A stretch of 64,000 bases of DNA from Octopus vulgaris (taxonomy: Eukaryota): NCBI GenBank assembly GCA_951406725.2, contig OX597834.1, positions 40,300,001 through 40,364,000 on the forward strand, written 5' to 3'. The notes under the pieces were generated by a model. That model did not search any database, was not told the origin of the DNA, and worked only from the letters and a program-made list of their open reading frames with translations. This document shows, one piece after another, positions 1 to 57,335 of this stretch. The first letter of the stretch is position 1; every line of letters starts with the position of its first letter. Made by a program: the position numbers and the translations under genes.

Positions 1-14
1 GGGCTAACGATCCA

Positions 15-65
<51 letters not shown>

Positions 66-5718: not shown

Positions 5719-5721
<3 letters not shown>

Positions 5722-6110
5722 TTTCTGTTTATTTCCTCGTGTTACTCTCTGCTGGAGAGCGTAGGCTCGAAACGTAAAAAGACTTTCTCACTTTCCCAAG
5801 AGTCAAACTAATACACCTGCTTGTTTATACACCTGTCTTCGTCTTTCTTTTTCTGTAAATTTCAACTATATATATATATACAGTCAATTCAATGAACAAA
5901 AAATTCAAAAACAAATAAAAAACGAATAGAGAGAGAGAAAAATGAAAAAAAATGAACGTGGGGACGTGCGCAAGAATTATATTAGTTTGACACTCGTTGA
6001 TAGGAGAGAGTTCATAACGTTACGAGCATGGCTCTTTGTCGGAAAGGAGAAAGGGAAAAGTCCATGAAACAAGGAAAACCATCAACCGTCCACGTGTGGT
6101 TACATTTCTG
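5719..6110. mobile_element. Two Penelope pLTR-like mini-elements tail-to-tail around a (TA)n tract (5719-5866 +, 5882-6110 -)
   Basis: GAGAGCGTAGGCTCGAAACGT on + and a degenerate AAGAGCCATGCTCGTAACGTT on -. Both 3' ends abut TA repeats. Confidence 0.6.
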
Positions 6111-6171
6111 TGTGTGTGTGTGTGTAAAATAGAGCTCGAAATATGAGTATGCGTATATTTTTGTTAATATT

Positions 6172-6270
6172 TAGCAGAAGTAACAGAGTGACTCGAGGGC
6201 TGAGAGTTTCGTGTGTTCATAAGTGCCAACGCACGAAACTCTCGGCCCTTGAGTCACAGTTGCGTTTGCT
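6172..6270. mobile_element. Foldback element, ~45-bp arms
   Basis: GTGACTCGAGGGCTGAGAGTTTCGTGTGTT pairs with AACGCACGAAACTCTCGGCCCTTGAGTCAC. Related to 8950-9090. Confidence 0.8.
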
Positions 6271-6698
6271 ACACACACACACACACAAATGGAGAGTAAG
6301 GGGAAGAGAACGATATATTACAATGTATTAGTTGAATACGACTGATAAATACATACCCAAAGAGAAAGGCTTACAAAGAAGATGTGGATAAGGAGAGAGG
6401 GGGAGAGAAGGAGACAGAGAAAGAGAGACATTACACACAACCTAGATTCTCAGAATGAGAGAGAGAGAAACAGGGAGGGAGAGAGAGAGAGAGAACAACA
6501 TTAATATGTCTTACGTCAGCGTCGAATCAACGACGCCAAAACGTCTCATCCGTCCAATATACGTAACCAAAGATCATTAATTGACAGAAACGACGACGCC
6601 ACTTCCCGTCGGTTCTTTCTGTATAGCTCTCAGCTCATCAGTCGTTCAGGATTATTGCATTGTTCACATGTAACTGTAGTGGCTATCATGCATCGACT

Positions 6699-7057
6699 AG
6701 GAAGCACTCCGTCGATTACGACGATGAGGGTTCCGGTTGATCCGAATCAACGGAACAGCCTGCTCGTGAAATTAACGTCGAAGTGGCTGAGCACTCCACA
6801 GACACGTGTACCCTTAACGTAGTTCTCGGGGACACAGAGAGTGACAAAGCCGGCCCTTTGAAATACAGGTACAACAGAAACAGGAAGTAAGAATGAGAGA
6901 AAGTTGTGGTGAAAGAGTACAGCAGGGATCACCACCATCCCCTGCCGGAACCTCGTGGAGCTTTTAGGTGTTTTCGCTCAATAAACACTCGCAACGCCCG
7001 GTCTGGGAATCGAAACCGCGAGTCCGCTGCCCTAACCACAGGGCCATTGCGCCTCCT
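6699..7057 (-). mobile_element. tRNA-derived SINE family C (head H2 + tail T1; probably octopus OR1/OR2-like)
   Basis: tRNA-like head GGCGCAATGGCC..GTGGTTAGGG..GGTTTCGATTCCC. 11-bp TSD ATGCATCGACT at 6688-6698 and 7058-7068. Confidence 0.85.
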
Positions 7058-7364
7058 ATGCATCGACTGCAAAGCCAGTGAATTGCCTTCCTAGGGAAGT
7101 TGCAGAGTATAAGTACATTGGAGTAGTGTAACTCAGCAGCTGTCTCCGAAATACTTAAAATATCTCTAGAACGTACTACACAAAGGCACCTGTGTACGAA
7201 GCATAATGAGGGAGTTATGTCAATAAAATTTAAGGGATTTTACCAGCTCTTTTTAGGTTACGTTTATGGATTTGTTTTGCAAGATTCTTGATGTGAAATC
7301 GTGTGTTGAAACAGATATTGTTATATTTCTGAACGGTCATTTTTTTTCTTCTTGTCAAATACTC

Positions 7365-8659: not shown

Positions 8660-8881
8660 CATTCCAAAATGTAACTAGACGGGGACTGTTAGCGATTTTT
8701 TTCCCTCCTCCTTCCTTTTCTTTCGGACTTTCCAATGTCTCCTGTTTCCGAAGAAGAGCTATGCTCGAAACATAAACCAACCACTCTTTCTTTCCTTCTC
8801 TGAGCATCTTATTAATACTTTGCACGTACCACGTCCTCGCCTTGTTTGTTTCTTGTCTTTTTTCTCAGTTCTTTTTAATTA

Positions 8882-27199: not shown

Positions 27200-27243
<44 letters not shown>

Positions 27244-27247
27244 AAAC

Positions 27248-27277
<30 letters not shown>

Positions 27278-27278
<1 letters not shown>

Positions 27279-27455
27279 CGGGAAAGTTTACGAAAATGAA
27301 CAAAAGACGAAGGCAGGTGAAGTACAAACAAATGTATTAGTATAGCGCTCAGGAATAGAAAAAGTCTTTTACGTTTCGAGCCTACGCTCTTCGACAGAAA
27401 GATACACAGAAAAAAACAAGGAGAGAAAAAAATGCGTGTAGTAGCTAACGATCTA
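27278..27455 (-). mobile_element. Hammerhead-variant mini-element P1
   Basis: The minus strand reads TCTTT-CTGTCGA-A-GAGC-GTAG-GCTC-GAAAC-GTA-AAAGA at 27365-27402. The element is embedded in microsatellite. Confidence 0.75.
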
Positions 27456-27547
<92 letters not shown>

Positions 27548-27731
27548 CGAGCTGGTAGAATCGTTAGGACCCGGGCGAAATGCTTAACGGTACTTCGTCT
27601 GCGTTTACGTTCTGAGTTAAAATTTCACCGAGGTCGATTTTGCCTTTCATCCTTTCGGGGGCGATTAAATAAGTACCAGTTTGTCCCCTTGTTTGTCCCC
27701 TCTATGTTTAGACCTCTGTGGGCAATAAAAG

Positions 27732-27774
<43 letters not shown>

Positions 27775-27998
27775 TTGATAGATATTGATATACATATATA
27801 GATATATGTACATATGTATGATGTATGTGTGTGTATATATATATCCATGTATATATATGTGTATATGAGCGCGCGCGCATTGTGTGTGTTTAGTGCACCG
27901 GTACTATTTGGTTGCAAAAGAAACTTCTTACCCAGATATCTATGGCTCTCTCTCCCCCTCCCCTCCCCCTCTCTCTGTGCATGTATGTGTGTGTGTGT

Positions 27999-28049
<51 letters not shown>

Positions 28050-28149
28050 TATAGACATGCATATATATAAATATATATACATATATATATATATACATGT
28101 GTATTCATATGTGTATATGTATACATAGTATTACGTATAAGTATATATT

Positions 28150-28191
<42 letters not shown>

Positions 28192-28559
28192 GGGATGGGC
28201 AGTTAAAGGGAGTTGGAGGAGGTATATGATTCGAAATAGGAGGTGCAGAAGGAGGAGAGTGGTGGATATGGAAAAGCAGAGAGAAATAAAGTAGACAAAG
28301 GTGGGTTGGAGGGGGAGGAGGTGATGATGTAGGGAGGAAAGATGGAGGTATGTGGTTCGGGTGTTGGTGGTGGTGGTGGTGGTGGTGGTGGTGGTAGTGG
28401 TGGTGTTGATGTGGATGTGAGTCATTATGAAATAAAGCTTTGATTAGATTAAAAGTAATTGACGGTATTTGTAGATAAAAGTGGCCAACGGTGAGGTTGG
28501 TTGGTGGGACGACATCATCGGCATCACGATCGAATTACCGTCTCTGCACATCACAACGG

Positions 28560-29045
28560 TCGCCGTGGTGGTGGTCGTCGTCGTCGTTGTCGTTTTCATC
28601 ATGTCTACCACCACCACCATCATCATGATCATAACTACCAGCATCACCATCATCGTCATCATCACCATCATCGTCATCATCATCATCGTCGTCGTCTTCA
28701 TCGTCATCATCATCATCATCTTCATCGTCATCATCATCATCATCATCGTCTTCATCGTCATCATCATCATCATCATCATCGTCATCATCGTCATCATCAT
28801 CATCATCTTCATCGTCATCATCATCATCTTCATCATCTTCATTATCATCATCATCATCGTTTTTATCAACACCATAACTTCAACCAAGACCCCTCCCCCA
28901 TCGTCATCATCATCATCATCATCATCATCATCAACATCATCATCATCTTTATCACCTCCACCGCTATCACCATCGTCATCGTAGTGTCTTCGAAATCACA
29001 ATGACGATGATGATGATCACCGCCACCACCACCAACAACAACAAC
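28560..29045. repeat. (CAT)n-type trinucleotide array
   Basis: Directly visible. Confidence 0.95.
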
Positions 29046-29555
29046 ATTTACAATCCTTCTTTTAGAAAAAAACCCCCAGAATTTATGGGTAAAGAGAAAA
29101 ACACTGTTCCCAGCCCCACCCCAACGTTGTTGCCGCTCATCCCTAACCGTTCCACCCTACCCCACCTTACCCCTACCAATCCTACCAATTCCAGTATCCA
29201 CCCCTTCATCAGAACAAGCACTCCATTGCCTCCACCCTGTATTTCACTTCATTTCACTCGTTTCAGTATCCACCCCTATTTCCCTAATTCCCTAATTCCT
29301 AAACGCCACCTGTGTTGCTAATAAGAAAGGGAGAGATCTGTAATTGAGTAAAGGGACAGAGGGAGGATGGGGGGAGCTGGGCGGTGTAGTGATGGTGGTG
29401 GAGGTGAAGAGAATCGCGTAGTGGTGTTGGGTAAAAGAGGAGGAGATATATTGGTGGGGTGCAGCGGGAGTAGTTGGAGGTAGAGGTGGTGGAAGAGTTG
29501 AGTAGTAGATGGGGAGAAAATGGCTGAAGCATTTGAAAAGAAGCTTAGAATGGAA

Positions 29556-29616
<61 letters not shown>

Positions 29617-29624
29617 CATATATA

Positions 29625-29824
29625 ACGGGAAAGTTTACGAAAATAAACAAAGGACGAAGGCAGGTGGAGTACAAACAAACAAATGTATTTGTATGGCGCT
29701 CAGGAATAGAAATAGAACAAGTCTTTTACGTTTCGATCCTACGCTCTTCGACAGAAAGATACACAGAAAAAAACAAAGAGAGAAACAAGGAGAGAAAAAA
29801 ATGCGTGTAGTAGCTAACGATCTA
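29625..29824 (-). mobile_element. Hammerhead-variant mini-element P1 (same ends as 27278-27455)
   Basis: Highly similar sequence and identical termini; the motif lies at 29722-29759. Confidence 0.75.
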
Positions 29825-29859
29825 TATGTATATATCTGTGTGTGTGTGTGTGTGTACAA

Positions 29860-44363: not shown

Positions 44364-44423
<60 letters not shown>

Positions 44424-44455
44424 TGTCTGTCTGTTTCCGTCTGTTTGTCTGTCTA

Positions 44456-44513
<58 letters not shown>

Positions 44514-44516
<3 letters not shown>

Positions 44517-44695
44517 AGAATTCACAAAAAAATTTTAAAAAGACCAAGACACGTGGTGTAGACAACAAACAGATGTATTAGTTTAACGCTCGGGAAGTGA
44601 AAAAGTCTTTAACGTTTCGAGCCTACGCTCTTCCACAGAAAGGAACACAGAATTAAACAAGGGGAGAAAACAAAGAATGTATAGTGGCTAGCGAT
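44514..44695 (-). mobile_element. Hammerhead-variant mini-element P1, diverged subfamily
   Basis: CTTT-CTGTGGA-A-GAGC-GTAG-GCTC-GAAAC-GTT-AAAG at 44607-44642. Confidence 0.7.
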
Positions 44696-47633: not shown

Positions 47634-48484
47634 TTTCTACTCTAGGCACAAGGTTCGAAATGTTTGGGGAGGGGGCCGGCCGATATGATTGACCCCAGTA
47701 AGCAACTGGTACTTAATTTACCGGCGGCGAGCTGGCAGAATCGTTCGCACGCCGGGCGAAATGCTTAGCGGTATTTCAGCTGCCGTTACGTTGTAAGTTC
47801 AAATTCCGCCGAGGTCGACTTTGCCTTTCATCCTTTCGGGGTCGATAAATTAAGTACCAGTTACGCACTGGGGTCGATGTAATCGACTTAATACCTATGT
47901 CTGTCCTTGTTTGTCCCCTCTATGTTTAGCCCCTTGTGGGTAATAAAGAAATAAATAGGTATTTCGGCTGCTGTAACGTTGTGAGTTCAAATTCCGCCAA
48001 GGTCGACTTTGCCTTTCATCCTTTCGGGGTCGATAAATTAAGCACCAGTTACGCACTGGGGTCGATGTAATCGACTTAATACCTATGTTTTGTCCCCTCT
48101 ATGTTTAGCCCCTTGTGAGTAATAAAGAAATAGGTACTTAATTTACCGACCCCGAAAGGATGAAAGGCAAAGTCGACCTCGGCGGAATTTGAACTCAGCA
48201 CATGAAGATAGACGAAATATCGCGAAGCATTTCGCCCGGCGTCTAACGTTTCTTATTTCTTTACTACCCACAAGAGGCTAAACATAGAGGGGACAAACAA
48301 GGACAGACAAATGGATTAAGTCGATTACATCGACCCCAGTGCGTAACTGGTAATTAATATATCGACCCCGAAAGGATGAAAGGCAAAGTCGACCTCGGCG
48401 GAATTTGAACTCAGAACGTAACAGCAGACGAAATACTGCTAAGCATTTCGCCCAGCGCGCTAACGTGTCTGCCAGCTCGCCGCC
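47634..48484. mobile_element. Nested SINE A complex: an A2 dimer (+, 47724-48132) inside a minus-strand A1, which is joined to a minus-strand A2 (48254-48484)
   Basis: 16-bp TSD GGTACTTAATTTACCG at 47708-47723 and 48133-48148. Confidence 0.92.
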
Positions 48485-48914: not shown

Positions 48915-49085
48915 AGTAAATCCACAAAAAGAAAACGAAGAATAAACACAAAAAACACTGGGAAGGAAAGAAAGATGCTTTAACGTTTCGAGCAATGCTC
49001 TTCTTCAGAAACAGAGTAGAGTCCAATAGAAAAGGAAGACAGAAGAAAAAAATCGGCAACGATTCAGATGTGGTTACATTTTGAA
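48915..49085 (-). mobile_element. Mini-element P2 with a minimal hammerhead core
   Basis: TTT-CTGAAGA-A-GAGC-ATT-GCTC-GAAAC-GTT-AAA at ~48979-49011; flanked by TA repeats. Confidence 0.7.
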
Positions 49086-57204: not shown

Positions 57205-57335
57205 TGGGCTCTATTGAAGAGCATAGGTTCGAAACGTAAAATACTTTTTTTTCATTTTTCTCGAGCGTGAAACTAATACACTTACTTGTTCAAACACCTG
57301 TCTTCGTCTTTTATTTTTCTATAGATTTCAACCAT
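57205..57335 (+). mobile_element. Decayed P1-type mini-element
   Basis: TTGAAGAGCATAGGTTCGAAACGTAAAA plus the same 3' tail as 5719-5866. Confidence 0.6.

Follow-up and report, generated by a model that had tools for sequence, protein, structure and literature searches.

The closest described relatives of the motif analysed here are the minimal hammerhead ribozymes (min-HHRs) of metazoan Penelope-like elements (PLEs), as described by Cervera and de la Pena (2014, PMC4209133; also PMC6765202). These motifs lie in the pLTRs of their elements, are found mostly in solo truncated copies and require dimerization. Helix III has no loop and is palindromic (15.2–16.2), an extra nucleotide lies between positions 9 and 10.1, and a G10.1–C11.1 pair and a U-rich 5′ tract are further features; the consensus is CUGANGAH, with A at position 6 (A6), and the published stems are longer than 4 bp and highly variable. 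The Neptune clade of PLEs is defined by a CX2-5CxxC linker before a C-terminal GIY-YIG domain with a CCHH motif, and this linker, in Neptune and Nematis, has been proposed to give a bias towards microsatellites (PMC8557442). For the Poseidon PLE of Anolis, the hammerhead is reported to need protein for cutting, and insertion in vitro could do without cleavage (PMC11167929). Non-LTR retrozymes are non-coding, hammerhead-bearing derivatives of pLTRs that form tandem arrays of HHR units, and dispersed monomers exist (bioRxiv 10.64898/2026.07.22.740005). A natural change of position 6 is described for one phage ribozyme, Bcep176, whose A6C core is slow in Mg2+ and cuts at high Mg2+ or with Mn2+ (PMC3088659, PMC7151607). 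PLEs are abundant and recently active in an octopus genome, according to a report whose accessible text does not mention ribozymes (PMC13282606).

The octopus family shares the min-HHR features listed above, the dimer requirement as a prediction, with two exceptions: U is fixed at position 6 (U6) and stem II is an invariant 4 bp (cf. PMC4209133). It resembles Neptune-clade PLEs in the order RT, Zn-linker, GIY-YIG, in its microsatellite bias, in the hammerhead within the pLTR and in its tandem and inverted structures (cf. PMC8557442). With Poseidon it shares a probable internal RT initiation, AT-rich targets and a hammerhead that does not define the ends of insertions; however, Poseidon initiates at a non-homologous site inside the ORF, whereas the octopus element ends at a TATATAT that matches its target (cf. 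PMC11167929). Unlike the arrays formed by retrozymes, the octopus copies are dispersed, variably truncated ends of a coding element, and unlike the single C6 ribozyme of Bcep176, the dimer-type motif with U6 occurs no fewer than 15,252 times in the genome. The extra A before stem II and the loopless stem III, which an earlier note on this DNA had regarded as oddities, are the published norm for metazoan PLE min-HHRs, and only U6 is unusual (PMC4209133). Most of what had seemed surprising is known PLE biology; what is left is the lineage-wide A6U core and a strong hotspot of 5′ ends. The copies are pLTR ends of an autonomous PLE; we consider it likely that the element's own endonuclease and reverse transcriptase put them into (TA)n, with truncation at the 5′ end, and that their U6 hammerhead is slowed and depends on dimers.

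Copies in the window and their parent element

The window is a 64,000-nucleotide stretch of the Octopus vulgaris genome (contig OX597834.1, 40,300,001–40,364,000), and its copies were matched to copy 1 by BLAST with E-values of 2e-16 to 3e-66 (Table 1). The search recovered the three minus-strand copies and two decayed plus-strand relatives of the earlier note, and the 'probable' copy at positions 1–16 turned out to belong to a full minus-strand copy, of which it is the 5′ end, the rest lying before position 1. The copy 1 motif comprises stem I, the U6 core, the extra A, stem II and the loopless stem III, and from the hammerhead consensus it is predicted to be cut 3′ of position 27370. Both the additional A and an ACGU stem III without a loop can be read in the sequence. 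U6 is indeed present in all three copies that had been called clean, a term that does not fit copy 2, where one stem II pair is broken.

Table 1. Positions, strands and characteristics of the pLTR-derived features in the window.
Feature	Position	Strand	Basis
5′-truncated pLTR copy 1, N7=C subfamily	27278..27458	-	93% identity to 3′ pLTR of tandem element L112
Copy 1 minimal type I hammerhead motif	27365..27402	-	read in sequence
(TA)n tract at copy 1 3′ end	27203..27277	.	sequence
5′-truncated pLTR copy 2	29625..29825	-	95% identity to 5′ pLTR of L112
Copy 2 U6 hammerhead motif, one stem II pair broken	29722..29759	-	sequence
(TA)n tract at copy 2 3′ end	29557..29624	.	sequence
5′-truncated pLTR copy 3, N7=G, H17=U subfamily	44514..44695	-	~80% identity to L112 pLTRs; placed in tree
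Copy 3 U6 hammerhead motif	44606..44643	-	sequence
TA-rich tract at copy 3 3′ end	44368..44513	.	sequence
Older decayed copy, C6 and G9, (TA)n on either side	5719..5866	+	sequence
Older decayed copy, U6 retained, G5 gone	57205..57335	+	sequence
5′ end of further full short copy, remainder precedes window	1..16	-	sequence
More distant relative, canonical A6 core, same stem II, different loop II; internal outgroup	48950..49013	-	sequence

Upstream of the motif, homology passes the 5′ end given in the earlier note by variable lengths (best matches), and at one locus (L002) it extends 1.5 kb into a GIY-YIG domain. A search for this domain gave 13,313 first-look candidates, of which 150 were scored, and 12 long-frame loci were taken from the scored set. 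Each of the 12 codes for RT, followed by a C-x4-C-x2-C linker and GIY-YIG, with the U6 motif downstream, and the (TA)n junction is visible in the printed stretch of 10. Pfam matched RVT_1 (E 1e-7) and GIY-YIG only at E 0.077, where the GIY-YIG motif was read directly; an initial Pfam scan of the L002 frame, which is decayed, gave no match. The PLE protein has 963 homologues, many with both Pfam families. Open frames of up to 826 aa span RT to EN, and the N-terminus is frameshifted or missing in the loci read. The linker fits CX2-5CxxC, and two Cys lie inside the GIY-YIG core; we tentatively assign the element to the Neptune type by its linker, a feature that Nematis shares.

The best view of the element's architecture comes from L112 (G000:C5:3794000-3802500), a partial tandem of a truncated pLTR, TATATAT, 5′UTR, a frameshifted ORF and a pLTR; the pLTR-TATATAT-5′UTR junction was found at 41 loci. 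Given the identity of copies 1 and 2 to the two L112 pLTRs, the linkage to RT and GIY-YIG and these junction loci, the ∼ 200-base repeats are 5′-truncated pLTR ends of an autonomous Neptune-type PLE and not a separate non-autonomous family. The Penelope link made in the earlier note is borne out by the 12 loci, and the autonomous element with the same terminus for which it suggested a search exists. Its retrozyme-like non-autonomous family is not supported, since what repeats is the autonomous element's own pLTR and short copies are interleaved with long ones. The tree, built from 144 copies, is a single ladder of subfamilies in which short and long copies are mixed in every well-sampled subfamily, and in the youngest subfamily short copies lie at near-zero distance from long or ORF-linked ones. 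The interleaving argues against separate short masters, in a sample that is small relative to 15,000 copies.

The two pLTRs of L112 are only 88% alike and each resembles a different subfamily variant, with a similar situation at L300; this suggests template switching or insertion of one copy at the end of another. In some subfamilies (L102/L116/L121/L298), a stretch of ∼ 30 nt is duplicated within the pLTR close to its 3′ end. Next to the PLE at L104 (oriented 5979-7202) is a frame of 408 aa whose GIY-YIG-like C-terminus differs; it is probably another PLE family. A further dispersed repeat of ∼ 185 nt lies between TA tracts in the window (27546-27733, also 332-701 and 47770-48132); this repeat resembles a tRNA-derived SINE.

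The U6 core and its possible activity

The genome searched is very microsatellite-rich (2.8 Gb in 227 contigs). An exact 29-base pattern for the U6 core had at least 15,252 matches, with none for the reversed-pattern control, compared with 180 for an A6 and 372 for a C6 version (both with a pattern 2 bases shorter than that for U6), which is about the level expected from mutation after insertion. The position 6 oddity that the earlier note had seen in three copies is thus family-wide. It also holds where copies were not picked on the core: among young copies, 80 of 99 had a full core and 79 of these carry U at position 6, and among old ones 37 of 50 had it and 32 carry U. Most of the sampled copies lie in the initial 84 Mb of a single contig, and there are a few loci that duplicate each other. 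The idea that A6 copies might be a hidden active family was dropped, as, judged by eye, 11 of the 15 copies read look like scattered changes in U6 subfamilies and the other 4 fall in the oldest subfamily. Viral contigs gave no U6 motif.

Outside relatives at 34–62% identity have A6. With a descriptor open at position 6, 20 of 80 related metagenome PLE loci gave 23 motifs, all with A6, 22 with the extra nucleotide and 20 with a loopless stem III. Within the window, older relatives have A6 as well (the one at 48991, and decayed ones close to 8743 and 6065), as do some copies of the oldest subfamily. Because of these three groups of A6 motifs, U6 is most likely derived, in a tree that is only midpoint-rooted. 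The hammerhead-like A6 motifs at 48950-49013 (-), 8740-8860 (+) and 5960-6065 (-) of the window belong to more distant families, and canonical-A6 motifs of such families were seen also at L131, L069 and L148.

Counting as lineage-level only changes shared by a clade of at least four tips of the 144-copy tree, we found none at 26 positions of the core, stem II, loop II and stem III, position 6 included; part of this set had been picked by core matches, either exact or with as many as 5 mismatches, and core conservation is inflated by that choice. Five such changes fall on N7 and two on H17 (A to U). The flank shows 112 over 145 columns, 65 of them variable (naive P 2e-7), and also contains invariant blocks. 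G17 occurs in 159 copies, which is the background level, and no G17 subfamily exists. The five changes at N7 compare with a flank mean of ∼ 0.8 per column and are possibly a tuning after A6U. A frozen core with free N7 and H17 is the tolerance pattern of a working hammerhead. The A6U core is apparently under selection.

The proposed hammerhead topology with a dimer-type stem III stands, with stems I and II, the loopless palindromic stem III and the extra nucleotide 9.1 all present. The claim that stem III could form only between two molecules was too strong, as a tandem transcript such as that of L112 carries two motifs. Stem II shows no covariation, being invariant (0 lineage-level changes), and stem I has a single one-sided change, so the covariation that the earlier note had looked to provides no independent proof of the fold here. 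In MFE folding, young copies formed stems I and II, some others folded differently, and a clean dimer hammerhead was not obtained. Rfam covariance models had no match at E ≤ 10 in 401 bases round an L112 pLTR, and among the 150 of 395 matches listed for the window there was no hammerhead, these being microRNA models on repeats. A second GAGCG, ∼ 25–30 nt beyond the predicted cut on its 3′ side (at 27340-27352 (-) in the window, for example), is nearly invariant along the lineage; base-pairing between it and the stem II 3′ strand could give an alternative off-fold.

Whether such a motif cuts can be approached from known variants. Single changes in the CUGA turn left a type III hammerhead with low activity (PMC9901934), and A6C is slow in Mg2+, as noted above, so the U6 motif may be dead. 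A6U likely weakens self-cutting without destroying the fold. We see about an even chance that two motifs pair through the ACGU palindrome and would cut slowly or only with the element's protein. This attenuated, probably protein-assisted dimer ribozyme is our favoured reading, with a confidence no better than that. The alternative, to which we give roughly one chance in three, is that the PLE termini are the same, the U6 motif no longer cuts and its hammerhead shape is retained to serve the element's protein as a signal for binding or folding. The low activity of CUGA single mutants (PMC9901934) and the Poseidon insertions that did not need cleavage in vitro (PMC11167929) would fit such a signal, as would the lack of a peak of 5′ ends at the cut site and the frozen sequence of loop II and stem II, as expected of a site read by a protein. 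The non-cutting signal sits less well with the ability of A6C variants to cut at high Mg2+ or with Mn2+, and with N7 and H17 (A or U, no G17) being the only free core positions, which is what catalysis tolerates. This tolerance is general hammerhead background. Part of it is described in PMC7151607.

In the literature searched, which did not include Lunse et al., we found no report of a natural U6 hammerhead core; that work reportedly holds a large set of hammerhead variants that could already include U6, and novelty is provisional. Descriptor searches based on CUGANGA would miss these 15,000+ motifs, and therefore lineages scored as lacking hammerheads may hide similar variants. The lineage amounts to a natural experiment, with A6 in older relatives, U6 in the successful descendants and the remaining core frozen, and the contrast of U6 with A6 bears on whether selection keeps cutting, slower cutting or only the shape. 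Cleavage by PLE hammerheads is weak and, in the one system tested, was dispensable for insertion in vitro.

Target sites and the 5′-end hotspot

At the expected 3′ end, TATATA is present in 72 of 90 core-anchored copies compared with 12–18% of control windows, and (TA)5 in 59 of 90 compared with 6–11%. The flank composition thus upholds the TA targeting that the earlier note had proposed. On the 3′ side the copies have a fixed end at (TA)n, and TATATAT is also found at the element's own pLTR/5′UTR junction. We think that the GIY-YIG domain probably nicks (TA)n and that the nicked end would pair with UAUAUAU in the RNA and prime cDNA synthesis; this is the simplest priming model because the element's RNA would carry UAUAUAU at that place.

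The 5′ ends were mapped in 99 distinct copies from the first 100 of 8,255 matches to the 3′ motif, and the end statistics left out the first 40 BLAST matches, which had been chosen for full length. As a landmark we used GCCATG, ∼ 70–80 nt upstream of each hammerhead core (e.g. L112, minus strand). Fifteen copies start downstream of the predicted cut, none within 3 nt of it, 4 inside the motif, 14 between the motif and landmark +15, 38 within -5 to +15 of the landmark, 11 at -6 to -50 and 17 further upstream (33, 38 and 28 downstream of, within and upstream of the landmark zone). The defined 5′ end ATCG(T/C)TAGC of the earlier note does not survive these counts; the ends vary, with a hotspot slightly upstream of that sequence. 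In a 22-nt zone (-10 to +11), 44 of the 66 young copies that reach it stop there, a rate of 4.2% per nt compared with 0.27% and 0.21% on either side. This 15- to 20-fold excess in young subfamilies is the real basis of the proposed unit length, without a fixed end. The three window copies begin ∼ 4, 6 and 10 nt into the landmark. In old subfamilies, where alignments are less reliable, the hotspot is weak (6/21). The upstream pLTRs of tandem loci stop there in 4 of 12 cases (Fisher p 0.05; 15 of 41 loci read by eye). Cleavage left no footprint: among 99 young copies none starts within 3 nt of the cut, and among 50 old ones a single copy does. Cutting does not set the ends of insertions.

What causes the hotspot? 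We speculate, at somewhat less than even confidence, that many RNAs would start there from a pLTR promoter and be primed at the first UAUAUAU, so that only this segment is copied into the ∼ 200-nt class. A transcription start may fit best, by precedent and by a conserved upstream reading frame: that of Drosophila virilis Penelope lies inside the pLTR (PMC2377424), and a uORF of four codons (M-I/L-x-R-stop) is conserved at or just downstream of the hotspot. The 4 of 12 tandem upstream pLTRs that stop there and the 6 of 21 in old subfamilies speak against this step. Instead, the site could be an RT pause or a junction preference through AT microhomology with the target, with no transcription start, which we regard as possible but less probable. 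Consistent with a pause or junction, the ends peak at AT dinucleotides (-3/-2 and +4), 8 of the 12 tandem upstream pLTRs continue past the site, and the hotspot is stronger in subfamilies with some predicted pairing. However, a longer TATAT match further 3′ catches only ∼ 2 of 99 copies, no conserved hairpin was found at the hotspot, where 1 of 12 folds had a z-score below -2, and the uORF just downstream is what one expects near an RNA 5′ end. A hairpin does not explain the hotspot, nor does AT microhomology alone.

The same hotspot is an argument for an independent non-autonomous unit of ∼ 200 nt (SINE- or retrozyme-like), with its own masters and mobilized in trans, as is the descent of non-LTR retrozymes from pLTRs (bioRxiv 10.64898/2026.07.22.740005). 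We judge this quite unlikely, and short master copies as the source of the size class improbable. The 5′ ends spread over 22 nt, short copies lie among long and ORF-linked ones in every well-sampled subfamily, and the copies read include no regular head-to-tail arrays, only occasional (TA)n-separated neighbours (L014, L024, L167). Neither a constant 5′ end (99-copy sample) nor clades of their own for short copies (144-copy tree) were found.

Returning to truncated ends of the autonomous element, the hotspot gives a model for the origin of solo pLTR copies. If it is a transcription start, ∼ 200-nt cDNAs reaching from there to the internal UAUAUAU might insert by themselves and outnumber their parent, so that a PLE could give rise directly to elements of the SINE or retrozyme kind. 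The most far-reaching version, an abundant and recently active PLE lineage that has passed through many turnovers of subfamilies, in which selection kept the U6 hammerhead as a deliberately slow or protein-switched dimer ribozyme and the pLTR yields ∼ 200-nt strong-stop-like cDNAs, we hold to be doubtful.

The uORF varies synonymously at codon 4 and stops at codon 5 in 149 of 163 candidates (TAG 141, TAA 4, TGA 4). The pyrimidine tract was also considered as a splice acceptor, as in Drosophila Penelope; the idea was dropped when the spliced-copy pattern gave one genome match (one donor position tried; PLEs retain introns). At L290, L292, L293, L299 and L039/L040, inverted 5′ segments or head-to-head pairs are joined to pLTRs, and three of these joins lie near the hotspot.
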